NCBI GenBank assembly: GCA_964570585.1
Contig: CAZMYR010000008.1
Location: 1 to 56,234, forward strand
Direction of reading: 5' to 3'
Source: an uncultured Planctomycetia bacterium
Lineage (GTDB): Bacteria; Omnitrophota; Gorgyraeia; JABMRG01; JAFGKX01
Length of the DNA stretch: 56,234 nt
The position numbers and the translations under genes are program-made. This document shows, piece by piece, positions 34,185-49,155 of the stretch (position 1 is its first letter; the number at the start of each line of letters is the position of its first letter). The notes beneath the pieces are model-generated. The model was not told the origin of the DNA and did not search any database. It was given only the letters and a program-made list of their open reading frames with translations.

Positions 34185-34193
34185 AATATTTCC

Positions 34194-34988
34194 TCATTTC
34201 GTTACGAAAGCATTTATTACCATAAAAACAGCAGCAACTAGAGTAGTATAAGCAAATATTTTCTTAAGGCGCACAGGGTTTGTTCTAATAGATATTTTAC
34301 CGCCTAATAGACCGCCAATTGCTGCAACACAGGTTACTGGAATAGCCAAAGCAGGATTGAAATCACCGGCTATGGCATGGCCTGTAAATCCCATTAACGC
34401 TGTTGCAGCTACCATAGCAGAAGATGTGCCAATAGCTATTCTCATGGGGACGCCGCAGGCTAACACCATAAAAGGTATTTTAAAGCTACCTCCGGAAATT
34501 CCAATCATCCCTGCGAAAAAACCTACAGTAGCGGTAATAGGGATAGCCATCCAGAAATTTACCCTATAATTATACTCGCCAAAAGAACGATTCCAATAAC
34601 CAAATCGTCTTTTACCATAACTAACATATTCTTTAACCGGACCCAGCATAAAAAAAGCTGCTAATGCTAAAAGAAAAGCAAATAGAAACTTTAAATAACA
34701 CCCTGCAAAATAATGGGCGAGATATCCGCCAATAAAAGCCATAATATCTGTAGGAGGGTCTATCGCCAGGGCAAGTTTCCAATCAACTGTCTTGTATTTA
34801 TGGAAAACCAGAGTAGCAACGATAGCTGTCATCATTAAAATTAGTTGCGCGCTTGTTGCAGCTATATTCATCGAAGCTCCAGAAGCGATTAATACAGGAA
34901 CATAAAAATTACCACCTCCTCGGCCTACCATTGACATTAAAACGGCTAATACAAATATAACGGATGAAGTTATTGCTATTTTTATCAT
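34194..34988 (-). CDS. Sulfite exporter TauE/SafE family
   Basis: GRGGG.FYVP and GISGGSFKIP repeats; multi-TM. Confidence 0.88.
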   Translation of the reverse strand: MIKIAITSSVIFVLAVLMSMVGRGGGNFYVPVLIASGASMNIAATSAQLILMMTAIVATLVFHKYKTVDWKLALAIDPPTDIMAFIGGYLAHYFAGCYLKFLFAFLLALAAFFMLGPVKEYVSYGKRRFGYWNRSFGEYNYRVNFWMAIPITATVGFFAGMIGISGGSFKIPFMVLACGVPMRIAIGTSSAMVAATALMGFTGHAIAGDFNPALAIPVTCVAAIGGLLGGKISIRTNPVRLKKIFAYTTLVAAVFMVINAFVTK

Positions 34989-35032
34989 TTAAGCTTTATC
35001 AAATATTCCGCACTGGATTAATTATAACTTTT

Positions 35033-35869
35033 TTATTTTTTATCAATTTTCAAGTAATCTGTAACCCTATTCATTATTTCATTCATAATCTTTGCGGTTT
35101 GGGTCTCTCGCTTAAAATGGATAAATGGTTGGCCTGAATCTCCGGATTTTACCATTTCAGGTTCAACCGGAATTCTCCCTAAGAATGGCACGCCTAAATC
35201 CGAAGCTGCTTTCTCGCCTCCACCTATTCCAAACAAATCTATTTCTCTTTTACAGTGAGGGCATATAAAACCGCTCATATTTTCAATTATTCCCACAACA
35301 GGCACCTTTAATTGCTTTGCGAATAAAACACTCTTGCGAGAATCTAAAATAGCAACATCTTGAGGGGTAGTAACAATTATTGCGCCGTTTATATCCGGAA
35401 TAAGCTGACAGACACTTAATGGCTCATCACCCGTTCCCGGAGGAGAATCAACGATTAAATAATCTAATTTACCCCAGTTAACATCGGCTAAAAACTGCTT
35501 TATGGTCAACATTTTTAAAGGGCCCCTCCAGATTACAGGTTGGTCTTGATTCTCCAAAATCAAAGCAAGGCTTACTGCACCTAAATTAGGTAAAACCTGG
35601 ACAGGTTCTATTCCTGAATCGGACCCTATAAGCCTTTTCCCTTCAATCCCTAACATCTTGGCAATATTAGGGCCGTGAATATCCGCATCCAGAATGCCAA
35701 CCTTATTTCCTTTAATGGCCAAAGCATATGCTAAATTAACCGCTACAGTGGTTTTGCCAACGCCGCCTTTTCCGCTAATTACAATTAATTTATTTTTTAT
35801 TCTCGATAAATTATCTTTAAGGCGTTTATCTTGCTCTAATTGCTGCTTTTTTCTTTCTGCCTCTTGCAT
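35033..35869 (-). CDS. mrp: Mrp/NBP35 (ApbC) Fe-S carrier ATPase
   Basis: [40 protein letters not shown]. Confidence 0.93.
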
Positions 35870-36015
35870 AAATAACTATCTCCTGACAATGCTGACTAGT
35901 TAATACTTATAAATTTGTTTTATTATAATCATTTTAAGCTATAAATCTCTAAAGTGGCTTTTCTGAGATTAACCATCGATAATCTTCCTTTGGCTTCCGT
36001 TTTTGGTTCCTGTAA

Positions 36016-36621
36016 CTAATCAATAAATATATTCCATAAGTCCTTAGGTATTCCTACAGCTATAAACTCTCTTCTTAAATCAGCAAAATTTCGTGAATCT
36101 ACACACCCAAATGAAAGGGTAATCTTTCCCTCAAGATAAGTTTTTACGGCAATACCGCCGCAAATTGGCATCATACCGGGCAATAAAACATCCAAATTCT
36201 TACCTGTACGCCTCTGATATAGTCTTGTTAAATTCATAATTTCCTGAGCAGAAGTATATGCCATGATTAGGTCTGGTATACCTTCAGTGTTTAATCCTAT
36301 GTATTTAAAGGGTTTCCTAAAGCGTGGAGCTCGTGAAAGCATTGATTTTAAGTTTGCTATTGAGGCCTGGGTTTTGCTTCGGCATATTTCTAAAAGCCTT
36401 TTTTTGTCGGGCTCCCAGCCAAAGGCATATTGGGCGCCGAGACAGGAAATGCTATCCTTATCTAAAATAATAGGTTGAATTATAGCCTTTTTTGTTGCTT
36501 CACAGAACATTACATTTTTCAATCTTATAACTTCTTTTAATTTCGGCTTTTCTTTATAAAACTTTACCTTAATCCAATGACTTCCAAACTTATCGGAAAA
36601 TCTCCAGTTAATACGATCCAT
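36016..36621 (-). CDS. DUF169 family protein
   Basis: FCEA, SCLGA, PICG, SFGCVDSR Cys pattern. Confidence 0.75.
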   Translation of the reverse strand: MDRINWRFSDKFGSHWIKVKFYKEKPKLKEVIRLKNVMFCEATKKAIIQPIILDKDSISCLGAQYAFGWEPDKKRLLEICRSKTQASIANLKSMLSRAPRFRKPFKYIGLNTEGIPDLIMAYTSAQEIMNLTRLYQRRTGKNLDVLLPGMMPICGGIAVKTYLEGKITLSFGCVDSRNFADLRREFIAVGIPKDLWNIFID

Positions 36622-36696
36622 TTCTTTCCTTTCTTTATTTTATATAGTTATTTAAGTTCTTTCCATCTTTTGCGCTGGCAATTGAAATAATTATAT

Positions 36697-37194
36697 TTAT
36701 ACCTTTCTTAAGAAAATTGCTTTATTCGGGCATGCTCTAACGCATTCACCGCATCCCGTGCACAGTGCTGCGTCAACTCCGGCAATATCATTCACTGTAA
36801 TTGCTCTTTGAGGACAAACATTAACACAAACACCGCAACCTGTACATTTAATTTCATCGATAATGGCTTTTAAAGCTGTTGATTTTGACGGTTCTTGTTT
36901 GTCCTCCTCGTTTAAATTTCCGTAAGGAAATTTGGGGAGGATGCTTTTTTTCGCTAATTCATCAATCCGCTTAAGGACCATATCCAGTTGTTGTTTAAGC
37001 TGCTGTGATTGTTGTTTGAGCATTTCTAATTCTTGTTCTTTTAAAACCGGCTGGGTGAAATTTTGTCGGGGTTGATTCGGAGAAACAGGCCATCCCTGAT
37101 ACATCCTTCCTCTACCGCGGCTTTTTCCAAATCCTCCTCTTCCACCGCCACTTGGCCCTTGTCCAAATGAACCAATTCCATCTCCAAATGCCAT
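36697..37194 (-). CDS. Gly-rich/coiled-coil (DUF5320-like) protein fused to a 2[4Fe-4S] ferredoxin
   Basis: GDGIGSFGQGP N-terminus, EQELEMLKQQ coiled coil, CTGCGVCVNVCP and CTGCGECVRACP. Confidence 0.85.
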   Translation of the reverse strand: MAFGDGIGSFGQGPSGGGRGGFGKSRGRGRMYQGWPVSPNQPRQNFTQPVLKEQELEMLKQQSQQLKQQLDMVLKRIDELAKKSILPKFPYGNLNEEDKQEPSKSTALKAIIDEIKCTGCGVCVNVCPQRAITVNDIAGVDAALCTGCGECVRACPNKAIFLRKV

Positions 37195-37492
37195 TTTTTA
37201 ACCTCTTTCGATAAATAGCTCGTTCTTTATAAACAACCAAATTAGCTCACTGCGCTCGCTACTTTATGGCCGTATGGGAATTTTTGAAATTCCCATACCA
37301 CAAGAAAATTGCCTTTAGCGATAACTCTAATGCGATTTTCGCAGTAGTATAGTATTGAAAGTATTTATACTTTTACCATCAAAAAAACAAAACATTCCTG
37401 ATAGGCAAAATTTTTCATAAAATCCCTAGGTTCAAAACGATACCGTCAAATTGTTCTATCTTTCGGCATCTGTTTTTCTCTCTCCTAAATAT

Positions 37493-37891
37493 TTATTTTT
37501 TCTCAGACTTCGCAGCAGATTCAATTTCTTTTATGCGCTCGTTTATGGAGCTAATATCTTCCTGCATAGCTTTGGCTTGCTCCCTAAGCATATCTGCTTC
37601 CTGTTGAGGGGCCATTTGTGGAATATACGGATTTCCATACGGCGTTCCGTAATAACTTCCTGCATACGGTGCTCCGTAATAACCCGCTCCGTATGGATAC
37701 GCCCATCGATTCCGGCCATGTCCTCTGCCCCAACCGTAACCTCCGCCCCAGCCACGGCCAAATCCAAACCCCCAACCTCCGCCTGGAATCGGATTCATAT
37801 AACCGGGTACAGGGTAACCAGCACAGTAACCTGCAGCACGACCTGTCATTGGTCCCAATCCAGCAGGACCAGTTCCATCTCCGCCTGGCAT
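37493..37891 (-). CDS. DUF5320 family protein, copy 1
   Basis: MPGGDGTGPAGLGPMTGRAAGYCAGY; G/Y/P-rich middle; C-terminal coiled coil; GGAGG RBS. Confidence 0.85.
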   Translation of the reverse strand: MPGGDGTGPAGLGPMTGRAAGYCAGYPVPGYMNPIPGGGWGFGFGRGWGGGYGWGRGHGRNRWAYPYGAGYYGAPYAGSYYGTPYGNPYIPQMAPQQEADMLREQAKAMQEDISSINERIKEIESAAKSEKK

Positions 37892-37908
37892 CGTAATCAC
37901 CTCCTCTT

Positions 37909-37948
37909 TAGCTTGAAGCTGGAAGGATTTCCTTCCAGCTTCAAGCTA
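37909..37948. repeat. Perfect 18-bp-arm intergenic hairpin
   Basis: TAGCTTGAAGCTGGAAGG-ATTT-CCTTCCAGCTTCAAGCTA. Confidence 0.8.
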
Positions 37949-37961
37949 TTAGATTACCATA

Positions 37962-38570
37962 TTACTTATCTCTTACAAATAAAAGGGGGAATATAATATC
38001 GCTTACGCAACAAGGTATCCAGACCGCAAGGAATAAAAATGAAAAAATAACTATATAGGAAAACCAGTTCAGGCTACCTCCCATAGCCATAATAATATGA
38101 AACAGTGATGCCCAGGTGCTTAATAGAACATGGCCTGCATGAGGGAACTTTGTCGTCGGCCTGAAATATGCTATAGCTACTCCCAATATAGCTAAAGGAT
38201 TTACCAACCACCATTTTTCAATAAAACCTATATGGATACCCCTGTTTGGCATCTTAAGCAAAACCTCTCCTAAATAAGGAATTAATGAATCGCTTAGAGT
38301 AGCAATTCCTATCGAGCCTACATAACCAATGATGAGCAAAATCAAAAGATTGCATTTGGTTTTCAGGCGGCCGCATTTATGAAGCTCATACATAGACGCA
38401 GTAACCAGCGCACTTAAAATAACATGCATTGGATGAAGTATATAAAAAATATTGTAAGAAGCTTTAGAAGATACCTTCTGAAAAAGTACCATAATGACTA
38501 TTCCTGTAATGGCTCCGAAAATAGTAAATGGGGCGTGATTTTTTAATTCTATAGAAATTTGCTTAAACAT
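37962..38570 (-). CDS. His-containing multi-TM membrane protein (possible metal transporter)
   Basis: HAPFT, HPMHV, PHAGHV intramembrane His; CCVSD. Confidence 0.7.
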   Translation of the reverse strand: MFKQISIELKNHAPFTIFGAITGIVIMVLFQKVSSKASYNIFYILHPMHVILSALVTASMYELHKCGRLKTKCNLLILLIIGYVGSIGIATLSDSLIPYLGEVLLKMPNRGIHIGFIEKWWLVNPLAILGVAIAYFRPTTKFPHAGHVLLSTWASLFHIIMAMGGSLNWFSYIVIFSFLFLAVWIPCCVSDIIFPLLFVRDK

Positions 38571-38578
38571 TTTCTCCC

Positions 38579-39442
38579 TTATAATTTTTTTAAAACCATA
38601 CTTGCTAATTTACAGCCGATATGCTCGGCAATAACAGGGCACTTAGCTTTAAATAAAAAATATATAGGCCTTCTTTCCTCACTCAGCGTTTCGTAATTGC
38701 CCTGGCCTTTGCTTATGATAAGTTTGGCATTTTTGTATAATTTAAGGAATTCCCTTGTGCAATATCTTAAGATTGTCCCCGGGGCATCGGAACCGCTTGG
38801 AATAACCCGCGCTATCTTATTTATACCGCAAGTTATAGCATCTTCCATTAATGCGTCATTTATTGCCGGTTTGCTTCTCACAACATAAATTATTTTTTTG
38901 CCAAGTTTATTAAGCTGCTCTATTAAAATCCTATCAAAAACAACCTCACCGGCATTATCCCCAATATATAATATCTTTTTTGCCTTTTTTACATCCTTTT
39001 TAAAATGCGCATAGTCAAATATTTTTTTATCGGCTTTTTTAAAATTTTCCTTAAATAATTTATCGAGCTCCTTTTCTATATTTAGGGAACTCTTTACGCC
39101 GTAATCTATGACATTTCCTGCTATGGCAATCTCAACAGCGGTTAAAAGTTTATCTTTTGCTCTCTTTACCTTTTCTTTTAACTCCGGATATAATGCTAAG
39201 GCAAGTTTATTGCTTTTATCTTTTATTTGCTCAAACGGGTCGGATTTTTGTGTTTTCTCTCTTATAATTCCGTATATGATACGCGCCATTGCCGGCGGCG
39301 TTGAATCAAGCGGAAAGTCTGCAATTGCCCTTGAAACTTCGTCTATTATTGCTTTCTGAGTAATTTCATCAGCGCCTGCAAGTTTTCCTGCATCAAGCGC
39401 CTGTTTTAAAAAACATGGGATACAATCTAAATATGTTTTCAT
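38579..39442 (-). CDS. DUF89/ARMT1-like damage-control phosphatase
   Basis: CIPC, AGNVIDYG, DNAGE, NDA, KGQGNYETL, KAKC. Confidence 0.9.
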   Translation of the reverse strand: MKTYLDCIPCFLKQALDAGKLAGADEITQKAIIDEVSRAIADFPLDSTPPAMARIIYGIIREKTQKSDPFEQIKDKSNKLALALYPELKEKVKRAKDKLLTAVEIAIAGNVIDYGVKSSLNIEKELDKLFKENFKKADKKIFDYAHFKKDVKKAKKILYIGDNAGEVVFDRILIEQLNKLGKKIIYVVRSKPAINDALMEDAITCGINKIARVIPSGSDAPGTILRYCTREFLKLYKNAKLIISKGQGNYETLSEERRPIYFLFKAKCPVIAEHIGCKLASMVLKKL

Positions 39443-39458
39443 TTCTATAAATTATTAG

Positions 39459-39551
39459 GACGCAGATTTTCGCAGATACACGCAGATTATTTTTTAAAAT
39501 TATTAAATGCCTTATATTTAAAACCCTGGAAATCTGCGTTCATCTGCGTCC
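39459..39551. repeat. CGCAGAT tandem/inverted repeat element
   Basis: Three 10-bp-spaced CGCAGAT units (39461-39487) facing two ATCTGCG units (39532-39548). Confidence 0.7.
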
Positions 39552-39589
39552 AAAAAAAGGAAATTCCTATACTATAAATTTACCTCTGT

Positions 39590-39796
39590 CTATTTTAGAT
39601 TTTTATCAATTGTTCCATCCGGCAGCATATTATCGGGATGGTATAACCCTTCTTCTTCCATCTTTTTTCTTACGCAATTTGGATTATTGCTCCAGCAATA
39701 ATCCTGGACCCATCTTTTATCAAGCTTCCCTTGTTCATAAAATCTTTTAAGAGGGCAGACAGCAAACCACTTGCAAACATTTTTATCGTTCATGGC
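39590..39796 (-). CDS. Small Cys-rich conserved hypothetical protein
   Basis: CKWFAVCP...YC..CVRKKMEE..HPDNMLPDG; start at MNDKN overlapping the upstream stop. Confidence 0.75.
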   Translation of the reverse strand, partial: AMNDKNVCKWFAVCPLKRFYEQGKLDKRWVQDYCWSNNPNCVRKKMEEEGLYHPDNMLPDGTIDKNLK

Positions 39797-40437
39797 TGTA
39801 TTTGCTTCCTTGCTAATAAAATCCAATGGCACTTCTCTTTATAATTTTTGATTTCATACCCTAACCCGTGAAAATAAGAATAAATATAATCTCTTCCCAT
39901 TCCAACGTCCCGGTGTACTCTACCCTCTTGCCTATGAACAGCGTTTACTATTTTCATTCCCCTTTTATTAAAATCTGCTAAGATAAGCTTGCCATCAGCG
40001 CATAAAACCCTATCCGTTTCTAAAAGAAGTGCATTAATGTTGTCTATATGGTGAAATAAATTCACAATAACTACATTTTTAAAACTGCTATCCGTAAAAG
40101 TCAAGGATTTTCCGTCCATTACATAAAATTTAACGTTAGAAAGAACATTTTCATAAGCAAGATTTAAAGCCGCTATCTTTAACGCCTCTTTGTCTTTATC
40201 TACTGAAATGAATTTATATCCGGATTTTGCCAGAATCAGGGTTGCATGTCCATTGCCGGCGCCGATTTCTAAAATGTTACCCTGCAGTGGATATGCTTTT
40301 GTTAATATGAATTCTCTTACTTTTGTAAAATCAAGACCTTTTCTTTTATAAACTGACATTCGTTCACTAAAGTGTTTGTGATTCTCTTTGATATCTTCAT
40401 CAGTTAGTTTTGGTATATATTCACTTTTGTAGTTCAT
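39790..40437 (-). CDS. Class I SAM-dependent methyltransferase
   Basis: ILEIGAGNG motif I; VMDG; NLFHH. Confidence 0.85.
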   Translation of the reverse strand: MNYKSEYIPKLTDEDIKENHKHFSERMSVYKRKGLDFTKVREFILTKAYPLQGNILEIGAGNGHATLILAKSGYKFISVDKDKEALKIAALNLAYENVLSNVKFYVMDGKSLTFTDSSFKNVVIVNLFHHIDNINALLLETDRVLCADGKLILADFNKRGMKIVNAVHRQEGRVHRDVGMGRDYIYSYFHGLGYEIKNYKEKCHWILLARKQIQP

Positions 40438-41314
40438 TCCAGATTTTAATAATTTCTTTTTTGGCTTTTCCGTCCGGATATTCTATTATTGTCTTGCCTT
40501 CTACCAGTGCCTTTACTATAGATTCATCAAAACTCACTTTACCGATAAGCTGGATATTGTTATCTTTGCAATATTTTTCTATATTTTTTGTCATCTCCAT
40601 ATTTAAATCATATTTATTTACAACGAGTTTGACTAAAATCCCAAAATGTTTAGCTACACCTATAACTCTATCTGCATCATGCAGGCCTGATAAAGTAGGT
40701 TCGGTTACCACCAATGCGCAATCTATGCCTGAAATAGATGCAATAACCGGACAACCAATCCCCGGAGCGCCATCTACGATAACCCAATCCAAATTTTGTC
40801 TTTCCGCTATCTCTTTTGCTTTTTTCCTTACCAGAGTAACGAGTTTGCCTGAATTTTCCTCTGCTATCCCAAGTTTTGCATGTACCATTGGTCCATATTT
40901 TGTATCGGATATAAACCACTCACCGGATATGTTCTCCTTCATCTGGATTGCTCCGACAGGACAAATATAGCTGCAGACAGCGCATCCTTCACAGGAGATA
41001 GGGTTTATATTAATCCCCACACCAAAATTTTTGGTGTGGGGATTAATCTCATCGTTATTTTTTGAAATTGCCGAAAATCGGCAAACCTCAATACATTTTT
41101 CGCACTTTGTGCATTTTTCTTTATCTATAATTGCGGCTTTACCGCCTTTAAATTCCTGCCTTTGCTTTATATCGGGATGCAAAAGAAGGTGTAAATCGGC
41201 TGCGTCAACATCACAATCAGCCATTACTTTATTTTTAGCTAAAGCCGCAAAAGCGGCTGTAATTACAGTCTTACCGGTTCCGCCTTTACCGCTTATTATG
41301 ACTATCTGCTTCAT
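40421..41314 (-). CDS. MinD-superfamily P-loop ATPase with inserted ferredoxin (COG1149), copy B
   Basis: SGKGGTGKT, DCDVDAADLH, two CxxCxxC..CP motifs, ENSGKLV, DGAPGIGCP, VTEPT. Confidence 0.9.
   Translation of the reverse strand: MKQIVIISGKGGTGKTVITAAFAALAKNKVMADCDVDAADLHLLLHPDIKQRQEFKGGKAAIIDKEKCTKCEKCIEVCRFSAISKNNDEINPHTKNFGVGININPISCEGCAVCSYICPVGAIQMKENISGEWFISDTKYGPMVHAKLGIAEENSGKLVTLVRKKAKEIAERQNLDWVIVDGAPGIGCPVIASISGIDCALVVTEPTLSGLHDADRVIGVAKHFGILVKLVVNKYDLNMEMTKNIEKYCKDNNIQLIGKVSFDESIVKALVEGKTIIEYPDGKAKKEIIKIWNELQK
41009..41047. repeat. 39-bp palindrome inserted in frame in the ATPase ferredoxin domain
   Basis: ATTAATCCCCACACCAAAATTTTTGGTGTGGGGATTAAT; encodes INPHTKNFGVGIN. Confidence 0.85.
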
Positions 41315-41319
41315 TGCGA

Positions 41320-42078
41320 TTAAAACCTATAAGATAAATTTCTCTTGTGTAAAATCATCCCCAAAAATAAAAATATGGCTGTGGATATGAATAGAATACC
41401 TAAACTAAAACCGATTGGAAACTGGTGTTCTTCATGAAAGCTATATCGTAAAATATCAACGGTATAGGTCAGGGGAGAAAACCTGGCAATTAATTTTCCC
41501 AGCCCGGGCAATTTATTAAAGGATATAAATATCCCGCTTATAAAAACAAGGGGCAGACGAACTAAATTAGACAGCATCATTATATTAGAAGGATTATCCG
41601 TAGCCGGTGAAGAAAGCAGGATTCCCAAACAAGAAAAACTGAGACTGGATAAAGTTACCCCGGCTATTAAAATAATCAGGCTCTTTAAACCGATCAAAAC
41701 AAAAGGAATGCTAAAAAGAAAAAGGACTAAAGTAACTCCTACGCCAAAAAGAAAACTTGCCAATGCATCTCCTAAAAGGATAAACTCTAAAGAAACCGGG
41801 CAGCTGATAAGTCTCTCTAAAGTGCGAAGCCTGGTCTCCCATGGTGTAATTATCGGGCCAACAGAAGAAGAGGTAAAAAAGACTGCTATGGCAAGCACTA
41901 CTGGCAACAGAGAGGTAAAAGGCATATTTTTACCCAGAAAAAATGCAAGAAAAAGAAAACAGGGAAAGATAAGGCCATAAATGAGAACAGGGGCTTTTAG
42001 ATAATAGATATTTATATCTTTCTTGGTTATTGCCCAAGCACTCTTAATTTGACTAAAAAGAGGGTTTTTTTCTTTCAT
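41320..42078 (-). CDS. ABC-2 type exporter permease
   Basis: Six TM segments; LERL..P, FISGIF, SPLTY. Confidence 0.88.
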   Translation of the reverse strand: MKEKNPLFSQIKSAWAITKKDINIYYLKAPVLIYGLIFPCFLFLAFFLGKNMPFTSLLPVVLAIAVFFTSSSVGPIITPWETRLRTLERLISCPVSLEFILLGDALASFLFGVGVTLVLFLFSIPFVLIGLKSLIILIAGVTLSSLSFSCLGILLSSPATDNPSNIMMLSNLVRLPLVFISGIFISFNKLPGLGKLIARFSPLTYTVDILRYSFHEEHQFPIGFSLGILFISTAIFLFLGMILHKRNLSYRF

Positions 42079-43015
42079 AATCCCAACCTTTATGTTCTTC
42101 GGTAATCTTGATGAAAACCTCTTCTAGATCCGGACCCAAGGTATTCAGACTAATAATTTTTAATCCTCTTTCTTTGGAAAAATCCAAAACTTTTGCTACT
42201 AACTCATCTGGGTTGTTGGTATAAAGTTTAAATTTATCGCCGGTTTTTTGCAACTTATTTACGTATCCTATTTTTGCCAAATTACCTTCATCTTTTATAG
42301 GTACATTAAATACTACTTCAATTACCTGGACGGATTGAAATTCTTTTTTTAGATTTTTCGGGCTATCAATGGTAGCAATCAGGCCGTGGTCAATAATAGC
42401 AATTCGATGGCAAAGTTCATCTGCTTCCTGAATATTATGTGTAGACAAAAATATAGTAATACCTTCGTTGTTGAATTTAGAAATCATTTCTCTAATGAGA
42501 CGTCTACTAGAAACATCCAGCCCTGAGGTTGGCTCATCGAGAAAAAGAAGTTGCGGGTTATGGATTAAGGCCATACCCAAAAGCAACTTTTGCTTCATCC
42601 CTTTAGAAAATACCTTAACTTTTTCGTCTTTTCTATCATATAGATTGAAAATTTCAAGGAGTTCACCGGCCTTTTTGACTCTGTTCTGTTTAGAAACCCC
42701 GTATAACTGTCCGGTTAGCATCAGATTATCCCAGGCGCTCAAATCAGTATAAGCATTGGCCATCTCTGGAACAACGCCAATTCCGGATTTGGCATGAAAG
42801 GCTCGCCGCTCAATATCGAAGCCCATAACTTTTGCCGAACCAGAGGTTGGCGCAATAACACCGGTTAGAATCCTTTGAGTTGTTGTCTTGCCCGCGCCAT
42901 TTGGGCCTAAAAAGCCAAAGATTTTCCCCTTCTCAACCTGAAAGTCAATATTATTAACTGCCAGAACACCCGGATATTGTTTAGTTAAACCTCTAACTTC
43001 AATAGCCAAATTCAT
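42053..43015 (-). CDS. ABC exporter ATP-binding protein (DrrA-like)
   Basis: GPNGAGKTT, FSKGMKQ, LDEPTSGLD, STH. Confidence 0.93.
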   Translation of the reverse strand: MNLAIEVRGLTKQYPGVLAVNNIDFQVEKGKIFGFLGPNGAGKTTTQRILTGVIAPTSGSAKVMGFDIERRAFHAKSGIGVVPEMANAYTDLSAWDNLMLTGQLYGVSKQNRVKKAGELLEIFNLYDRKDEKVKVFSKGMKQKLLLGMALIHNPQLLFLDEPTSGLDVSSRRLIREMISKFNNEGITIFLSTHNIQEADELCHRIAIIDHGLIATIDSPKNLKKEFQSVQVIEVVFNVPIKDEGNLAKIGYVNKLQKTGDKFKLYTNNPDELVAKVLDFSKERGLKIISLNTLGPDLEEVFIKITEEHKGWDYERKKPSF

Positions 43016-43860
43016 TCTTTCTTTAATTTATTGATATAATCCTGTATCGATTTAAATAAATCCCTAAATTTTTGTTTATATTCCGGAAATTCCTCAACGA
43101 TAAGCCTACCTTTCGAATAAGCCGTGGCTATTTCTTTCTTAAAAGGAATTTTCATTAATACTGGTATATTTTCCTTATCACAATAGGCTTCTGTTTTTTT
43201 ATTTCCTAAATCGGAGCGATTAACAACAACACCAAATGGTATTTTAAGTTTTCTTAAAACTTCAACTGCCAAAGTTAAATCATATAAACCAAAAGGGGTC
43301 GGTTCTGTAACCAATATACAAAAATCACTTCCTTTTACCGCTTCTATTACAGGACAGGATGTTCCCGGCGGAACATCGATAATAACTGTTCTGGTCGGAT
43401 TTATATATTTTTTAACCTCTCTTATTAAAGGGGGCGACATAACCTCGCCAATATTTAATTTGCCATGTATAAATTGCATACTATTAACATTGCCAACTTC
43501 GATTAAGCCGATTTCTCTTCCTTCTTCTGAAATAGCGCCTTGAGGACAAAGGAGCATACATCCGCCGCAACTATGGCATAATTCAGGAAATATTAAAACT
43601 TTGTCTTTTAAAACAGCAATGGCATTATACTGGCAAACTTCCTGGCACTTGCCGCAAAAATTACATTTTCCTTTATTTATCTTTGGTACAGGTACACCAA
43701 TCTTATATTTGCTCTTAATGGCTGGCTTAAGAAAAATATGAGCATTTGGTTCTTCTACATCGCAATCTAAGAATTGGGTATTTTTTATAGACAAGGCAAG
43801 ATTGACAGCTACAGTGGTCTTTCCTGTGCCGCCTTTTCCGCTGGCAACTGAGATAATCAT
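43012..43860 (-). CDS. MinD-superfamily P-loop ATPase with inserted ferredoxin (COG1149), copy A
   Basis: SGKGGTGKT, DCDVEEPN, CNFCGKC, CHSCGGC, DVPPGTSCP, VTEPTPFG. Confidence 0.9.
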   Translation of the reverse strand: MIISVASGKGGTGKTTVAVNLALSIKNTQFLDCDVEEPNAHIFLKPAIKSKYKIGVPVPKINKGKCNFCGKCQEVCQYNAIAVLKDKVLIFPELCHSCGGCMLLCPQGAISEEGREIGLIEVGNVNSMQFIHGKLNIGEVMSPPLIREVKKYINPTRTVIIDVPPGTSCPVIEAVKGSDFCILVTEPTPFGLYDLTLAVEVLRKLKIPFGVVVNRSDLGNKKTEAYCDKENIPVLMKIPFKKEIATAYSKGRLIVEEFPEYKQKFRDLFKSIQDYINKLKKE

Positions 43861-43878
43861 ATTTTTATTATTACTTTA

Positions 43879-44103
43879 TTATTGCCGTATCATCTTTGAG
43901 CCGCATTTTTGGCACGTCATGTTATAACAAGGTACACCTACTTTGTGAGGGGCTTTTGCTCCGCAGCTAGGACAGACACAATCGCCGCTGGGGCCTGCTC
44001 CCGGGCGATTACCACCCATTCTGCCTCGGCCACCGCCTCTACCCATACCTCTTCCTGTTCCCGGCCCTCCTCCAAATGGTCCTGTTCCATCTCCTCCTGG
44101 CAT
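43879..44103 (-). CDS. Gly-rich DUF5320-like peptide with C-terminal CxCxxC..CxxC zinc ribbon
   Basis: MPGGDGTGP...GDCVCPSCG...CQKCGSKM; GGAGG RBS. Confidence 0.8.
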   Translation of the reverse strand: MPGGDGTGPFGGGPGTGRGMGRGGGRGRMGGNRPGAGPSGDCVCPSCGAKAPHKVGVPCYNMTCQKCGSKMIRQ

Positions 44104-44114
44104 TTTTTCCTCCT

Positions 44115-44288
44115 TTATCCTGGAAGCGAAATTGCTTCATTTGGACACTCATTTACACAAGCGCCACACTCTATGCATTCATCATTGATAACCGCTTTTT
44201 CATCCATTATCTTTATAGCATCAACCGGACACACTTCAATACATCTATTACACGCGGTGCATTTCTCTTTATCTACAATAGCAGCCAT
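44115..44288 (-). CDS. 57-aa 2[4Fe-4S] ferredoxin (not in ORF track)
   Basis: MAAIVDKEKCTACNRCIEVCPVDAI...CIECGACVNECPNEAISLPG. Confidence 0.92.
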   Translation of the reverse strand: MAAIVDKEKCTACNRCIEVCPVDAIKIMDEKAVINDECIECGACVNECPNEAISLPG

Positions 44289-44291
44289 ATT

Positions 44292-44834
44292 TCATTCCTC
44301 CGTTTCCTTATTTTTTTCCAACTCTTCAATCTTTTGGATAATTTGCCTAAGTTGCTCCTGCATTGCCTTAGCCTGTTCTTTTAACATCTTAACTTCATCC
44401 TCTTTACCGGCTGGTTTAGGCTCTGCTTGAGGTGCTTGCCTTAAGCCAATTCCTCTTCCTCCACCCATACTTCCTAACCCAAATTTTGAACTCACAGTTG
44501 CGCCCTGTGTTGAGTTAAATTCACCTTTTTTATATTTTTCTACTGCTTCTTTTATTGGGCCTGAAATTCCTGTTATAATTTCAACTCCGGCTGCTTGCAA
44601 TGTCTGAAATGCATTAGGGCCGACATTTCCTGTTAAAACTGCTTTGATGCCTTTACCTGCAACAAGCTGTCCTGATACAACACCGGCGCCACCCATAGCA
44701 GATACACTGGGATTTTCAACTGCTTCAAATTCTAATGTATCCGGATCTACGATGATGAAATATTGGCATCTGCCAAACCGTGGGTCAACCTGGGAATCTA
44801 AATTGTCTCCTTGTGAACTTATGCATATCTTCAT
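44292..44834 (-). CDS. NifB/NifX-family protein with C-terminal DUF5320-type coiled coil
   Basis: DPRFGRCQYF, GNVGPNAF; tail EDEVKMLKEQAKAMQEQL. Confidence 0.88.
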   Translation of the reverse strand: MKICISSQGDNLDSQVDPRFGRCQYFIIVDPDTLEFEAVENPSVSAMGGAGVVSGQLVAGKGIKAVLTGNVGPNAFQTLQAAGVEIITGISGPIKEAVEKYKKGEFNSTQGATVSSKFGLGSMGGGRGIGLRQAPQAEPKPAGKEDEVKMLKEQAKAMQEQLRQIIQKIEELEKNKETEE

Positions 44835-44850
44835 ATTTTAGTCCCTTCTT

Positions 44851-45231
44851 TTAATCTGGGTGTTCGCACTCTGTCTTATCTACGCCATAACCTCTGCCTG
44901 CACCTGGCCTGCATAGGTTTTCTCCACCTTCAAGAGTGCCTTTCAGGATTTTATCTATTGTCTCATCTATAGTGCCGGTAATTCCTACTACTACCTCTAT
45001 TCCCTGCTCTGTAAATAAACCAGACGCTCTTTGTCCCATAGCTCCGGCAATAATAGCAGTCACTCCTCTTTCATGTAGAAATTGTGGCAAAAATCCAGGG
45101 TGATGCCCTGGATTATCGATAGTTTCTTTATTTATTAATTTCCCATCTTCAATTTCTACAATTGTAAAGGAGGGACAGCGCCCAAAATGGGCAGATACAA
45201 AACTTCCCTCTGTAGATATGGCTATTTTCAA
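44851..45231 (-). CDS. NifB/NifX-family protein
   Basis: SAHFGRCPSF, NPGHHPG, GAMGQRA. Confidence 0.88.
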   Translation of the reverse strand: MKIAISTEGSFVSAHFGRCPSFTIVEIEDGKLINKETIDNPGHHPGFLPQFLHERGVTAIIAGAMGQRASGLFTEQGIEVVVGITGTIDETIDKILKGTLEGGENLCRPGAGRGYGVDKTECEHPD

Positions 45232-45381
45232 AACCTACCTCCAAACTTTGCAAAGCCCCTCATATACATTCGGGACTTCGTCCCCAATTCACCCTCGCCA
45301 TAACTTTAGCGAAGGATGAAACAAAATTTATCCCGAACGGCGCTTTTCCATTTACAATGTAGAAAAGCACCGGGGGACTAT

Positions 45382-45816
45382 TTATCCCTGCTGTTTTTCT
45401 TTCTTAGCTGCAGATTCCAGTTCCTTTATGCGCTCGTTGATTGCTTTCATTTCATCCTGCATTGCTTTGGCTTCATCTTTCAGCATATCTGATTCTTGCT
45501 GTGGAGTTATCTGCGGGTCATATGGATTAGCGCCATATGGATTAACACCATATGCTCCATATGGGGAAGCATATGGATAGCCACCATATGGATAACCATA
45601 ACCAGCTCCCCAGCCAAAACCTCTGCCCAAGCCACGGCCTCTGCCACGACCCCAGCCACGGCCAAAGCCGAACCCACGACCAAAACCACGGCCAAAACCG
45701 CCTCTTCCGGAAATTGGATTCATATAGCCTGGTACAGGATATCCAGCGCAATAACCTGCAGCCCTACCTGTCATTGAACCTAAGCCTGCCGGTCCTGTTC
45801 TATCTCCTCCTGGCAT
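45382..45816 (-). CDS. DUF5320 family protein, copy 2
   Basis: MPGGDRTGPAGLGSMTGRAAGYCAGY; GRG and GYP repeats; coiled coil. Confidence 0.85.
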   Translation of the reverse strand: MPGGDRTGPAGLGSMTGRAAGYCAGYPVPGYMNPISGRGGFGRGFGRGFGFGRGWGRGRGRGLGRGFGWGAGYGYPYGGYPYASPYGAYGVNPYGANPYDPQITPQQESDMLKDEAKAMQDEMKAINERIKELESAAKKEKQQG

Positions 45817-45849
45817 CTTAAACACCCCCTTTCGTTACTGTCATATTAT

Positions 45850-45864
45850 TGAAAATCATTTTCA
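45850..45864. promoter_or_regulatory. Fur-box-like 7-1-7 palindrome
   Basis: TGAAAAT-C-ATTTTCA between fur and the DUF5320 gene. Confidence 0.7.
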
Positions 45865-45880
45865 TTAAATAAACCAAAAA

Positions 45881-46369
45881 TTATTTCTCTCTACATTTAT
45901 CGCATAGCCCAAGAAATTGTATCCGATGGTCTGTTATCTTAAAATTATATCTTTTAGAAAGGGCATCTTCTGTCTTATCTATTAGATCCTTTTCTTCACT
46001 GATAAAATCTGTATAATCGATGACTCTTCCGCAATTGGTGCATATTAGATGATGGTGATGCCTGGCCCCTTTTGGCCCTACAGCTAATTCATACCTTGCC
46101 TTTCCATCCCCGATATCAAATTTAAAAACGATACCCATATCAACCAGGAGCTCAAGTGTCCTATATACTGTTGTTAAACCGATTCCAGGATATGCCTTAT
46201 GGGCCTTCATATAAACATCCTCTGCGCTCAGGTGTTCATTTGTCTCGCTTAAAACCCTCAATATTTCCTGGCGTGGTATAGTTACCCTATATCCATTACC
46301 TCTGAAGCGCCCATGCCACCAAGGAGGACCAAATCCACCTTTTCCAAATCCGCCCATTCCTCTTGGCAT
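45881..46369 (-). CDS. fur: Fur family transcriptional repressor with a Gly-rich N-terminal extension
   Basis: HLSAEDVY, GLTTVYRTL, HHHHLICTNCG, GLCDKC; AAGGAG RBS before MPRG. Confidence 0.9.
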   Translation of the reverse strand: MPRGMGGFGKGGFGPPWWHGRFRGNGYRVTIPRQEILRVLSETNEHLSAEDVYMKAHKAYPGIGLTTVYRTLELLVDMGIVFKFDIGDGKARYELAVGPKGARHHHHLICTNCGRVIDYTDFISEEKDLIDKTEDALSKRYNFKITDHRIQFLGLCDKCREK

Positions 46370-46385
46370 CCTAATCACTCCTTAT

Positions 46386-46440
46386 TGATAATGATTTCCA
46401 TTTCCATTATAAGTATACACAATAAAACAGATTTTGTCAA
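46386..46440 (-). promoter_or_regulatory. Sigma70 promoter with a downstream Fur box
   Basis: TTGACA-17bp-TATACT (46440-46412); TGATAAT-G-ATTTCCA at 46386-46400 between the promoter and RBS. Confidence 0.75.
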
Positions 46441-46498
46441 GAGGGAAAAATGGGATGCACAAAACCAGCATTGTTAACTAAATTCCATAATCGGTATT

Positions 46499-46963
46499 TT
46501 AACTATCCTTTTTAGGCTCTACCTTTATTTCAGGGAGGACTTTCACTTTAGACTTTACTGAATTAGAAATAAGGCAATTCTTCTCGGAAAGTTCTATAAG
46601 TTCTTTTACCATTTCGGCTTTGTCGCTTGAAGCAACCGTAACTTTGGGCTTGACCTTAATCGCGGAAAATATAAATTGATTCTCTGCTCTCTCTAAAACC
46701 CCTTCAGTTTCGCTTTCATAACTTAAAAATTCTACACTTTTTCTCTCCGCATAATATAAAAAGGTTGTCATAATGCAGGAATTAACTGAAGCAACAAAAA
46801 GTTCCTCTGGCGTCCAAATACCCGCATGACCTCGAAATTGAGGCGGAGTGGCTACTGCAATATCGGGTTTATCTAAAGATGAAAGAAAGCCTCTCTTAGC
46901 GCTATGCCATTTGATATAGGTTCTATAGACAAATTTTTTTGCCTTCCGTTTTATCTGACTCAC
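46499..46963 (-). CDS. OsmC/Ohr family protein
   Basis: PPQFRG, WTPEELFVASVNSC, CLISNSVK. Confidence 0.85.
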   Translation of the reverse strand: MSQIKRKAKKFVYRTYIKWHSAKRGFLSSLDKPDIAVATPPQFRGHAGIWTPEELFVASVNSCIMTTFLYYAERKSVEFLSYESETEGVLERAENQFIFSAIKVKPKVTVASSDKAEMVKELIELSEKNCLISNSVKSKVKVLPEIKVEPKKDS

Positions 46964-46978
46964 TTCTTCTCTCCTTAG

Positions 46979-47143
46979 CTATTTCATCAAAGCAAAAAAC
47001 AATCCCAAAATTGCCCCATATAAAGCACCGCTATAAGGATTACTGGTTAAAGGACAGGTTCCGCTTGAACATTTGCCAAAATAACCAATAAAACATCCAA
47101 TTGCGCCTCCTATAATTACTCCAATGACAATTCTCAATAACAT
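46979..47143 (-). CDS. 54-aa two-TM protein with CxxGTCP (DUF6132-like; not in ORF track)
   Basis: MLLRIVIGVIIGGAIGCFIGYFGKCSSGTCPLTSNPYSGALYGAILGLFFALMK. Confidence 0.8.
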   Translation of the reverse strand: MLLRIVIGVIIGGAIGCFIGYFGKCSSGTCPLTSNPYSGALYGAILGLFFALMK

Positions 47144-47153
47144 ACGGATTCCC

Positions 47154-47681
47154 CTATTTTAAAAGTTTTTCAATCTCGCGTTCAAAAACCTCAATAGAAG
47201 TAAAGCCTATGAATTTTTTAACTATATTCTTATTTTTGTCAATAATAAAAGTGGTAGGGATATATCTAATACCGCCATAGCTTTCGGTTATTTCATAATT
47301 ACCTATTGCGATAAGATAATTTACCCTTATATTCCGGCAAAATCTTTTTACCCCTTCTATATTACCTCTATCCAGACTTACGCCAATTATTACTAATCCC
47401 TTATCTCTGTATTTATTATACAGCTTAACAAAATCAGGGATTTCTTCCCGACAGGGCGGACAATACGTAGCCCAGAAATCAAGGATAATTACTTTACCTT
47501 TAAAATCAGAGAGCCTTAAGCTTTTTCCTTCAAGACTCGGCAATACAAAATCGGGTGCACTCTGATTTAAGCTCTCCTTTTCTAATTCAGCTGCCTGTGA
47601 ATTCAGCGGCTTTCCCCAATTAGCAATTAGAAAAATAAAACACCCTAACGCAATTAAGACTCCTATTAGTTTTCTTCGCAT
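47154..47681 (-). CDS. TlpA/ResA-family thiol-disulfide oxidoreductase
   Basis: N-terminal anchor, APDFVL, FWATYCPPC, IPTTFII. Confidence 0.9.
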   Translation of the reverse strand: MRRKLIGVLIALGCFIFLIANWGKPLNSQAAELEKESLNQSAPDFVLPSLEGKSLRLSDFKGKVIILDFWATYCPPCREEIPDFVKLYNKYRDKGLVIIGVSLDRGNIEGVKRFCRNIRVNYLIAIGNYEITESYGGIRYIPTTFIIDKNKNIVKKFIGFTSIEVFEREIEKLLK

Positions 47682-47694
47682 CTCTTACCTCCAC

Positions 47695-48381
47695 TCAAAA
47701 ACTCGAAACCATAATTCCTATCCCTATAACAATGAGTAAAATTCCGCTTACAACTGAGATGGGTTTAAGATACCTTTTTACCTTTGAAAATAGGCCTAAC
47801 ATATATCCTAGGCCCATACTCAAAAGAAAAAATGGTAGCCCCAGCCCCAAAGAATAGAAACTTAAGAGTAATACGCCTTTAACTAAGCTATCTTTGGTAG
47901 CAGCCAACATGAGTATACCGCCTAATATGGGCCCAACGCAAGGTGTCCAACCAAAGCCAAAAACCATGCCTACTAAAAAGGAGCCAAATTTAGTCACAGG
48001 TTTACTTCCAAGGTGGAGTTTTTTCTCATACTGTAAAAACCTTATATTAAATAAACCGCTAATATGCAATCCAAAAAAGATAACTATTAATCCACCGATT
48101 ATTTTTATTATCTTCTGCTTGGCAAATAAAAATGAACCTAAAAAAGTAGCTGATGCGCCTAAAATAACAAAAACTATGGAAAAGCCTAAGATAAATAACA
48201 AACTTTCAGGCAAAACGGCCTTCACCTTCTCAGAATACTTCTCTTTAGGTTTACTCAGTTCCTCAACCGAAGACCCGGTTATGAAACAGACATACGCAGG
48301 GATAAGAGGCAATATGCATGGTGAAAAAAATGATAAAAGACCTGCGCCAAAAGCAGTTAAAATCTGCAGAATATCGGTCAT
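47695..48381 (-). CDS. ccdA: CcdA/DsbD-type transmembrane electron transporter
   Basis: SFFSPCILPLIP and GWTPCVGPIL. Confidence 0.92.
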   Translation of the reverse strand: MTDILQILTAFGAGLLSFFSPCILPLIPAYVCFITGSSVEELSKPKEKYSEKVKAVLPESLLFILGFSIVFVILGASATFLGSFLFAKQKIIKIIGGLIVIFFGLHISGLFNIRFLQYEKKLHLGSKPVTKFGSFLVGMVFGFGWTPCVGPILGGILMLAATKDSLVKGVLLLSFYSLGLGLPFFLLSMGLGYMLGLFSKVKRYLKPISVVSGILLIVIGIGIMVSSF

Positions 48382-48397
48382 TTTTAATAAACCTCTT

Positions 48398-48610
48398 CTA
48401 GAAACAAGTAGGGCAGGTACCTGTTGGACAGCTCAATCCCGAAGAACTAGCTTTGCTACCAGAGCTTCCCACGCTGAATGCTCCAAGGAGTTTCTCGATA
48501 TTTTTGTTTCCACACTTCTTGCATATGAGCTCTACTTTTTCAGAAGTTACTCCTATCAGCAAATCAAATTTTTCACCGCAATCTTTACAAGCATAAGTAT
48601 AAATAGGCAT
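48398..48610 (-). CDS. FmdB-family zinc-ribbon protein, copy 2
   Basis: MPIYTYACKDCG...CKKCG...CPTGTCPTC. Confidence 0.85.
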   Translation of the reverse strand: MPIYTYACKDCGEKFDLLIGVTSEKVELICKKCGNKNIEKLLGAFSVGSSGSKASSSGLSCPTGTCPTCF

Positions 48611-48655
48611 AATTTTCCCTCGTTACTATTTCTTGAGATTTATATCTATCCCTGA

Positions 48656-48982: not shown

Positions 48983-49155
48983 CTCTTCCTCCTTTCCTTT
49001 TGTATCCTTTGTTTCTCTATCAAGCGTCGATATCTCCTCTTCAACTTTTTCTCTATTTTTTCGCCTTGCACTCCTTATAATATATAAGAGCAAACGTACT
49101 TTATTCCTTACATGTCCTATCATAACTGCCTTATTTTAAAGCCGCTGCTAATAAT

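Follow-up and report, generated by a model that had tools for sequence, protein, structure and literature searches.

The orange protein (ORP) gene cluster of Desulfovibrio encodes a multiprotein complex that has been purified and whose function is still unclear (PMC6345978, PMC8359166). In D. vulgaris the members comprise Orp3 and Orp4, MinD-like ATPases with two [4Fe-4S] motifs each, the small Fe-S protein Orp5, the orange protein itself (Orp8) and MrpORP (Orp9). In vitro, Orp3/Orp4 receive Fe-S from MrpORP, and co-purification has been shown for Orp3, Orp4 and Orp8 (PMC6345978). The operons orp5-orp4-orp3 and orp7-orp8-orp9 are controlled by the sigma-54 activator OrpR (PMC6345978, PMC8359166), whose redox sensing depends on a [4Fe-4S] cluster on C52, C61 and C65 (PMC8359166); a GAFTDA motif is listed for DVU2106 (PMC4641369). 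Here we describe a related gene cluster from an uncultured Planctomycetia bacterium (GTDB lineage Bacteria; Omnitrophota; Gorgyraeia; JABMRG01; JAFGKX01). The window, that is the whole stretch of DNA analysed, comprises 56,234 nt (assembly GCA_964570585.1, contig CAZMYR010000008.1, positions 1-56,234), and the piece under study lies at 36,697-46,369. It encodes a Fur-family regulator, two proteins of the Pfam family DUF5320 (PF17253), NifB/NifX-like carriers, ferredoxins and MinD/ferredoxin ATPases, all on the minus strand.

A second described system that bears on this cluster is IssA (PF2025) of Pyrococcus furiosus. It consists of a NifX-like domain and a disordered tail of 70 residues, among them 15 Gly, 14 aromatic and 7 cationic residues, with an isoelectric point (pI) of 10.7. 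According to the proposal made for it, the tail envelops anionic thioferrate, giving particles of 20-300 nm that contain no other protein. IssA is made only with abundant Fe and sulfide, and an uncharacterised mesophilic clade with Gly-rich tails of high pI has been named IssX (PMC5524996).

The genes of the region very probably form one minus-strand operon running from 46440 to about 35033, which is headed and autoregulated by the Fur-family gene and belongs to the ORP-type family; we hold this identity and this mode of regulation with high confidence. As to function, the reading that fits best overall, and that we favour by a modest degree, is that the operon encodes a Fur-repressed machine which would assemble or move metal-sulfur clusters, with a short helix tethering the carriers. 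What a preliminary description of the sequence had observed in this region is confirmed, and synteny extends the neighbourhood at least to 35033, so as to include DUF169 and Mrp, and probably to 33816-46963.

Relation to the orange protein cluster

For comparison, five contigs with close homologues and 80 species-level loci were collected, giving 85 loci from more than 15 anaerobic phyla (cited as L001 and so on). Residues 2-108 of NifX2, the NifX domain of the protein NifX2cc, matched the D. gigas orange protein (2WFB) with an E value of 2.3e-20, and the protein matched MTH1175 (1EO1) with 9.7e-21. Among the related loci without a fur gene, four (Zixibacteria L020, Desulfobacterales L058, Deltaproteobacteria L081 and L083) encode a PAS-sigma54-HTH activator directly upstream. 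All four activators carry C-x8-C-x3-C at about residues 52-65; GAFTDA is present in three, L058 having GAFTNA, and HTH_8 was found in three at the threshold used. These signatures of OrpR mark the four loci as orp clusters, and among their genes are those for DUF5320 and for tZ, a small Cys-rich protein. The match to 2WFB and the OrpR-type activators at the head of DUF5320 loci together place the cluster of the window with the ORP family. It had been taken for an undescribed complex, a view that has to be given up in favour of membership in the wider family of the Desulfovibrio ORP cluster.

The likeness extends to the composition of the cluster. Both systems are confined to anaerobes and have an orange-protein-type NifX carrier, two paralogous MinD-type ATPases with two [4Fe-4S] motifs each and an Mrp/NBP35 Fe-S donor; the small Cys-rich protein before the ATPase pair is a putative further likeness. 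COG1149a and COG1149b match Orp3/Orp4 by architecture only (CbiA/ParA plus two Fer4). In gene order, tZ-COG1149a-COG1149b corresponds to orp5-orp4-orp3 and DUF5320-NifX-Mrp to orp7-orp8-orp9; tZ, which has six invariant Cys, holds the position of Orp5 before the ATPases and may be its counterpart. The NifX domains also match the NCBIfam model of MrpORP, NF041136, as separate NifX proteins only, with 102 and 37 bits against a cutoff of 450. The window has one co-directional operon, in contrast to the two divergent orp operons. The ORP papers cited discuss neither DUF5320 with its modules, nor the tag of the small Cys protein, nor the accessory genes.

Across the loci the genes recur on the same strand in the order [Fur]-DUF5320-NifX1-NifX2-[Fd]-tZ-COG1149a-COG1149b-[DUF169]-[Mrp]-[c80]-[DUF89]-[methyltransferase]-[membrane protein], Fd standing for ferredoxin. 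The phyla include Omnitrophota, Planctomycetota, Atribacterota, Clostridia, WOR-3, Zixibacteria, Chloroflexota, Deltaproteobacteria, Spirochaetes and Archaea. Within 6 kb of DUF5320, NifX was found in 98%, COG1149 in 83%, tZ in 78%, Fur in 49%, DUF89 in 37% and Mrp in 34% of the 41 loci that have at least 6 kb downstream of this gene, figures that are biased to relatives of the window because the 80 loci are those nearest to the query DUF5320. The preliminary description had staked its proposal on the co-occurrence of the modules across genomes; since they do co-occur, the proposal survives on this point.

DUF5320 tag, spacer and helix

Several proteins of the piece had been described as sharing two portable modules, an N-terminal PGGDGTGP tag and a coiled coil. 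Both modules are statistically real: they are the conserved ends of DUF5320, with a Gly/Arg/aromatic spacer between them (Table 1; the gathering threshold of PF17253 in Pfam is 27 bits). The N-termini were recovered where they had been placed on the minus strand, MPGGDGTGP at 37891 and 44103, MPGGDRTGP at 45816, MAFGDGIGS at 37194 and MPRGMGG at 46369. A Shine-Dalgarno sequence precedes the ATG at 45816 and at 46369 by 7-8 nt, so that these Met-Pro starts are true N-termini. Not all five are tags. MAFGDGIGS on the ferredoxin ccFd is a degenerate copy that escapes the hidden Markov model (HMM) of the N-module, and MPRGMGG on Fur, which had been counted as a variant, begins a separate conserved extension instead.

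Alignment of 50 family members revealed the anatomy of DUF5320. The tag belongs to an N-module of about 34 residues, not nine, MPGGDGTGPxGxGPMTGRAAGYCAGYxVPGYxNP, in which the Cys is invariant; a spacer of variable length separates it from the helix. Pfam treats the family as one domain, with both tag (positions 1-39) and helix (about 60-99) inside the model, whereas here the three parts are separable and found independently on NifX, ferredoxin and Cys-ribbon proteins. In the AlphaFold2 (AF2) model of DUF5320a, residues 1-100 are disordered, with a predicted local distance difference test score (pLDDT) of about 40, and residues 105-143 form a single helix (pLDDT 85-92). All four helices of the locus show a heptad pattern. 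The spacer of DUF5320a consists of 36% Gly, 12% Arg and Lys and 23% Phe, Trp and Tyr, with a pI of 10.3; taken together, the spacers of DUF5320a and DUF5320b range over 34-36% Gly, 23-27% aromatic residues, 7-12% Arg and Lys and pI 9.6-10.3.

The size of the DUF5320 family is considerable: the matches listed fall into more than 7000 clusters at 90% identity, and a profile search of 1.84 billion representatives returned 6523 at 50% identity. Among the 150 best of these 6523 representatives, nearly all are matched from residue 1 onwards, and the longer proteins are explained by mis-called starts or tandem N-modules; the tag is thus strictly N-terminal. For the same reason, longer representatives of 184-288 aa were rejected as fusions to new domains. 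Tandem N-modules (MPxFDGTGP...GYC, then MPxGDxTGP...GYCAGY) were seen in L009, L041 and L054 (P0009, P0041, P0054) and at L020:9495, L024:9223 and L033:8331, the second module retaining its Met-Pro despite the internal position. Literature searches for DUF5320 and PF17253 yielded nothing relevant.

The tag is also carried by tZ, whose first nine residues are identical to it. With 21.5 bits tZ falls below the 27-bit threshold and therefore is not a formal member of DUF5320; some of its relatives are named "DUF5320 family protein" by NCBI. The tZ family comprises 667 clusters at 90% identity and is invariant at M1, P2, G4, G8 and P9 in the tag and at C42, C44, P45, C47, H53, C59, C64 and C67 in the ribbon. 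By AF2 the ribbon is ordered (residues 41-74, pLDDT 81-88) and the tagged half (1-40) is disordered. Modelled alone, the tag is disordered despite its invariant residues, and it is common to two otherwise unrelated families. When the ribbon was compared with the PDB by Foldseek, no hit reached significance (best E 0.6), and the hits were to generic modules only, zinc ribbons and rubredoxin knuckles. Of 42 tZ genes, 17 have COG1149a as the next gene downstream and two have Mrp.

The helix, in turn, occurs on NifX2cc and ccFd, where the helix HMM finds it in ccFd with an E value of 3e-08. A signature, (E/Q)E..(M/L)LK.QA..(M/L)..Q(L/I)..I..RI.ELE, is common to all carrier types. Among the architectures of the loci, N-module plus helix was found 88 times and tag or N-module plus Cys ribbon (tZ) 39 times, and NifX plus helix and helix plus ferredoxin are also present; 21 proteins have one or more N-modules without helix, often in tandem and with a bare GRG/Trp tail. 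Conservation of the helix signature on three carrier types across phyla, and of the tag on two families, indicates purifying selection for a shared function.

Further support for cooperation is provided by gene fusions. Many of the closest homologues of NifX2cc likewise have NifX fused to the helix, NifX1 and NifX2 are joined elsewhere in proteins of about 265 aa, and in six loci (L024, L053, L056, L058, L032 and L078) NifX, spacer, helix and a 2x[4Fe-4S] ferredoxin form a single polypeptide. Repeated fusion is classical evidence that helix, NifX and ferredoxin work together, and the six one-chain proteins bear out the functional link that had been proposed between the modules. Judged from these sequences, NifX2cc and ccFd of the window are in effect two halves of the fusion protein, with a copy of the helix on each. 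A third way of joining these domains was observed at 52366-52929 of the window, a direct ferredoxin-NifX fusion (two Fer4 and PF02579) with no coiled coil.

Bare cationic Gly/Arg tails without helix, such as GRGQGRGQGRGGGRGCGGGGRG, terminate ferredoxins and NifX-like proteins in related loci (L041:10507-10989, L060:9061-9501, L064:3250-3690, L070:10592-11029, L024:7465-7860 and L060:8116-8517). In L041, L064 and L070 the DUF5320 gene is directly followed by a ferredoxin gene, and these ferredoxins have cationic Gly/Arg tails, not the helix. By its sequence, the polycationic tail is a third recurring element of the clusters.

Regulation and neighbouring genes

The Fur protein contains PF01475 and the motifs HHHHxxCxxC and CxxC, and an inverted-repeat operator lies in its own promoter region. 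The promoter match upstream of fur is the top match within 33500-47200. In most related loci an equivalent Fur box is situated about 25-40 nt before the fur start, and another 17-36 nt past its stop. Altogether 64 boxes were found in 17 kb of sequence upstream of fur and between fur and DUF5320, compared to 50 in 565 kb elsewhere, a 42-fold enrichment. Given a classical metal-loaded repressor, boxes just past the promoter and before the first structural gene imply expression when metal is scarce.

Fur of B. subtilis recognizes 7-1-7 operators with the consensus box TGATAAT-N-ATTATCA. The operator here, TGAAAAT-N-ATTTTCA, differs from it in one position per half-site. Like the Firmicutes regulators Fur, PerR and Zur of the B. 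subtilis type, the protein has the Fur fold with HHHH..CxxC...CxxC and is autoregulated. It is unlike them in that it has a conserved extension, stays below every NCBIfam equivalog cutoff and is apparently dedicated to this operon. The extension, (MP)..GPPWWHGRFRG(C)GY, was present in 31 of the 42 non-redundant Fur proteins that head such operons, in 15 with the Cys. In its chemistry it resembles the Gly/Arg/aromatic spacers, both in the Fur of the window and in the Fur genes of L004-L082.

In D. alaskensis G20 the orp-region genes Dde_3197-3199 co-vary with feoA and flavodoxin (PMC10533852). As these are iron-starvation markers, the co-variation fits expression induced by scarcity. A literature search on Fur regulons with NifX-like genes found nothing. 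A further 7-1-7 site resembling a Fur box, with one mismatch, was observed at 55553-55567, about 50 nt before the start of a SLAC1/TehA-like anion channel gene (54408-55502), which may belong to the regulon of the Fur paralogue. The perfect inverted repeat between DUF5320b and ccFd sits in an unusually long gap of 298 bp and could be an operator or an RNA hairpin. A terminator after DUF5320a (hairpin at 45371-45390) was considered and rejected, since it is a plus-strand prediction whose G-U pairs become mismatches on the coding strand.

Table 1. Genes, sites and other features of the cluster, in order of transcription
Feature	Position	Strand	Assignment and evidence	PF17253 match
Promoter match, sigma-70-type	46412-46440	-	TTGACA, 17 nt, TATACT; 11/12 positions; upstream of fur	
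Fur box 1	46386-46400		7-1-7 inverted repeat TGATAATGATTTCCA, 1 mismatch to TGAWAATNATTWTCA; between -10 hexamer and ribosome-binding site of fur	
Fur-family regulator	45881-46369	-	PF01475, 117.5 bits; 27-residue N-terminal extension MPRGMGGFGKGGFGPPWWHGRFRGNGY	
Fur box 2	45850-45864		Perfect 7-1-7 palindrome TGAAAATCATTTTCA; 17 nt past fur stop, 34 nt before DUF5320a start	
DUF5320a	45382-45816 (open reading frame 45382-45825)	-	N-module 1-34 (invariant Cys23), Gly/Arg/aromatic spacer 35-103, C-terminal helix 105-143	86.3 bits, E 3.5e-24; whole profile in two stretches (best 1-54)
NifX1	44851-45231	-	Single-domain NifB/NifX-like, TM1816 type; HFGRC motif, Cys/His-rich C-terminus; PF02579, 85.2 bits	
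NifX2cc	44292-44834	-	Orange-protein/MTH1175-type NifX domain 1-108, GRG spacer, DUF5320 helix 145-176; PF02579, 87.2 bits	32.6 bits, E 1.9e-07; positions 32-99 (helix half)
Ferredoxin, 2x[4Fe-4S], 57 aa	44115-44288	-	Fer4 and Fer4_7	
tZ, 74 aa	43879-44103	-	Tag MPGGDGTGP, GRG spacer, 6-Cys/1-His ribbon (CxCPxCG..H..G.PC....CPxCG)	21.5 bits, E 5e-04; positions 1-39 only, under threshold
COG1149a	43012-43860	-	MinD/ParA-class P-loop ATPase with inserted 2x[4Fe-4S] ferredoxin domain; CbiA, ParA, Fer4	
ABC transporter ATPase	42053-43015	-	PF00005; inserted between COG1149 genes, outside conserved core	
ABC-2 permease	41320-42078	-	PF01061; same insertion as ABC ATPase	
COG1149b	40421-41314	-	Second MinD/ferredoxin ATPase; CbiA, ParA, Fer4; synteny	
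Class I S-adenosylmethionine methyltransferase	39790-40437	-	Methyltransf_11; recurrent accessory, 24% of loci	
c80, small Cys-rich protein	39590-39832	-	No Pfam match; start codon uncertain; recurrent accessory, homologues in 13 loci	
DUF89/ARMT1-like metal-dependent phosphatase	38579-39442	-	PF01937, 258 bits; recurrent accessory, 37% of loci	
His-rich polytopic membrane protein, 202 aa	37962-38570	-	No family match; recurrent accessory, homologues in 10 loci	
DUF5320b	37493-37891 (open reading frame 37493-37900)	-	Paralogue of DUF5320a, 70-72% identical, identical three-part build	80.4 bits, E 2.3e-22; whole profile 1-99
Inverted repeat, perfect, 12-nt arms	37272-37298		GTATGGGAATTT caa AAATTCCCATAC; unique in window	
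ccFd	36697-37194	-	Degenerate tag and GRG spacer 1-50, helix 53-83, 2x[4Fe-4S] ferredoxin 110-160; Fer4 families	30.0 bits, E 1.2e-06; positions 35-99 (helix half)
DUF169 (COG2043)	36016-36621	-	PF02596, 87 bits; synteny; recurrent accessory	
Weak Fur-box-like site	35923-35937		2 mismatches; overlaps promoter-like site before Mrp gene; weak evidence	
Mrp/NBP35 (ApbC-type) Fe-S carrier ATPase, 278 aa	35033-35869	-	PF10609, 324 bits; stand-alone, unfused to NifX	

Among the remaining genes, NifX1 matched the PDB entries 1T3V and 1O13 with about 3e-14, and the 57-aa ferredoxin is found at an equal position in L001, L008, L009, L010, L019, L022 and L051. The ABC genes are rare in related loci. No solved structure was found for the COG1149 ATPases, and a literature search on COG1149, COG1433 and MTH1175 added only the IssA paper. 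TauE and PanD, which come after Mrp in transcription order, are peripheral. PanD (aspartate decarboxylase, 33816-34184) and the DUF89 phosphatase recur nearby in L001, L024, L036 and L078; a link to pantetheine- or CoA-type low-molecular-weight thiols that would mobilise Fe-S is pure speculation.

Directly upstream of fur, at 46499-50978, lies a block of thiol-redox genes (OsmC, DUF6132, AhpC/TSA redoxin, DsbD_TM/CcdA, Zn_ribbon_8, thioredoxin and a Grx-Trx fusion), and OsmC is also found beside the cluster in L002, L009, L013, L022 and L024. A defence island of 33-36% G+C at 13500-28000 adjoins tRNA-Asp and tRNA-Val (28880-29044). It contains DarT (16248-16862), DarG (15103-16251), a Ppl-like PHP+SMC ATPase (18327-21104), a Type IIG restriction-modification enzyme (21177-24335) and an HKD+Snf2 helicase (24339-27584). 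Searches of the whole window with Rfam gave two tRNAs only, and no riboswitch (e.g. for molybdenum cofactor) or other RNA.

Proposed function and alternatives

A working order of events can be suggested for the favoured assembly machine. When metal, probably Fe(II), is plentiful, Fur would sit on the box past the promoter and on the box before DUF5320 and keep the operon off; scarcity would de-repress it. It is this de-repression by scarcity that speaks for assembly, salvage or trafficking rather than for a depot. The C-terminal helix of about 35 residues would then act as an oligomerisation handle that joins the orange-protein-type NifX, the ferredoxin and DUF5320, which elsewhere form one fused chain; from sequence, we give such a tether an even chance. 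The Gly/Arg/aromatic spacers would serve as polycationic, disordered arms for anionic, non-covalently held metal-sulfide species. Two precedents are thioferrate on the tail of IssA and [S2MoS2CuS2MoS2]3- in the orange protein. By analogy with these, binding of polyanions by the spacer is put forward tentatively. Finally, the N-terminal tag might be a docking peptide through which the Cys ribbon of tZ and the DUF5320 scaffold are presented to one shared partner; the most plausible candidates are the P-loop ATPases COG1149 and Mrp, which would load or move the clusters.

Several points weigh against this machine. The Fur paralogue stays below the NCBIfam equivalog cutoffs for Fur, PerR and Zur (its best model, Bacillus-type Fur, gives 137.6 bits against a cutoff of 220), and the unusual N-terminal extension could alter the logic of its regulation. 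Helices within a locus are 0.41 identical compared to 0.375 between loci, a difference so small that it gives no signal of co-evolution for hetero-pairing. Docking of the tag onto the ATPases is argued from adjacency and from an analogy with ParB, MinE and McdB, and we consider it rather doubtful. The equations of Orp7 with DUF5320 and of Orp5 with tZ are inferred from gene order and the OrpR-headed loci only. Unlike the orp clusters, the window has no OrpR or sigma-54 control, a Fur-family repressor with two operators taking its place, and its Mrp and NifX are separate genes where MrpORP is a fusion with a C-terminal Di-Nase (NifX-like) domain; fused Mrp forms of 389-433 aa occur in the related loci L020, L055, L067 and L079. 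The co-occurrence figures carry the sampling bias given with them.

Storage after the manner of IssA is the alternative that stands up best, although we regard it as unlikely. DUF5320, tZ and the tailed NifX proteins and ferredoxins would coat and nucleate a thioferrate-like Fe-S polymer, the ATPases and Mrp would mobilise it, and the product would be a protein-mineral granule or condensate holding Fe and S. The resemblance is considerable: in both systems a disordered tail, cationic and rich in Gly, comes after a PF02579/IPR003731 domain, the spacers of DUF5320 reproduce the tail chemistry of IssA in composition and pI, and NifX2 matches MTH1175, an IssA-type model protein. Cationic tails are found on five protein types of these clusters, the IssX clade offers a mesophilic parallel (PMC5524996), and sulfur-globule proteins are matched weakly, by composition (PF17228, E 0.005). 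However, the aromatic-rich cationic segment is here mainly on the separate DUF5320. NifX2cc itself carries PF02579, but its tail is poor in aromatic residues (22% Gly, 12% Arg and Lys, 5% Phe, Trp and Tyr) and its end is formed by an acidic coiled-coil helix. No protein besides IssA is present in the IssA particles, whereas about ten partners are conserved here. Moreover, IssA requires abundant Fe and sulfide, while Fur boxes with a classical Fur imply expression under scarcity, and the G20 homologues follow feoA and flavodoxin.

It is less probable still that the modules reflect shared ancestry without assembly. Duplication and domain shuffling within one operon would then have spread them, and each protein would act alone with helices that are homo-oligomeric only, for example as a homo-oligomeric chaperone or a modulator of Fur. 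Such a history would account for the paralogy of DUF5320a and DUF5320b, for the tandem N-modules and N-only variants, which are signs of active shuffling, for helices that do not co-vary within a locus, and for the resemblance of the Fur extension to the spacers. It does not agree with the purifying selection seen on the helix signature and on the tag, or with the repeated, independent NifX-helix-ferredoxin and NifX1-NifX2 fusions, which point to physical cooperation.

A bolder proposal, improbable when all its parts are taken jointly, is that the cationic segments of DUF5320, tZ, NifX, ferredoxin and Fur are a common handle that would grip one polyanionic, linear metal sulfide, a thioferrate or thiometallate. 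Segments and helix would together form a particle comparable to that of IssA, but mesophilic and composed of several proteins, ATPases of the MinD/Mrp class would recognise the free MPxGDGTGP peptide and load or unload the particle, and Fur would sense the state of the particle through WWHGRFRG(C)GY, instead of or besides free Fe(II). If true, DUF5320 would act as scaffold for a bacterial organelle or condensate of metal and sulfur that is new in kind, and the ORP complex would gain a function.

Least probable of all is a role in positioning or cell division, with COG1149a, COG1149b and Mrp as spatial organisers, DUF5320 and tZ as their partners, each a disordered N-terminal activating peptide with a coiled coil by analogy with McdB, MinE and ParB, and the Fe-S domains as mere redox sensors. 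In its favour, a phenotype in cell morphology and division has been linked to the orp genes and MrpORP is found at one cell pole (PMC6345978, PMC8359166), DUF5320 does consist of a conserved, disordered N-terminal peptide, a low-complexity stretch and a helix, and COG1149a often has the tZ gene immediately before it. Against it, the division role is termed hypothetical and unclear by its authors (PMC8359166), all conserved partners are metallocluster carriers, donors or ferredoxins, a metal sensor controls the operon, and the helix is fused to NifX and ferredoxin and never to a cytoskeletal or DNA-binding domain.

Three other candidates were tried and rejected. A precursor of a ribosomally synthesised and post-translationally modified peptide (leader, Gly-rich core, ABC exporter, methyltransferase, radical S-adenosylmethionine enzyme) does not fit, as the helix is conserved, the ABC genes are specific to the window and the partners are all cluster carriers. 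For an encapsulin or microcompartment targeting peptide there is no shell gene in the window or in the 85 loci, and for a secreted sulfur-globule protein there is no signal peptide, the PF17228 match being compositional and sub-threshold.

In summary, the cluster is of an already known kind, the ORP type, here under Fur control. As far as we could find, its three-part DUF5320 anatomy, the tagged Cys-ribbon family, the NifX-helix-ferredoxin fusions and the Fur subfamily with paired operators have not been described before. With DUF5320 now inside the ORP-cluster family, a way opens into a complex whose function has long been unclear (PMC8359166). The locus offers several handles for this: an operator pair with a dedicated Fur paralogue, an N-terminal peptide of docking type in two families, fusion partners of the helix (NifX and ferredoxin) that predict binding, and spacers chemically like the only known thioferrate-binding tail. 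If the favoured reading of iron-limitation-induced building or salvage of Fe-S or heterometal-sulfide clusters is true, the operon would represent a widespread, anaerobe-specific layer beside ISC, SUF and NIF in Omnitrophota, Planctomycetota, Atribacterota, Clostridia, Chloroflexota and sulfate reducers.

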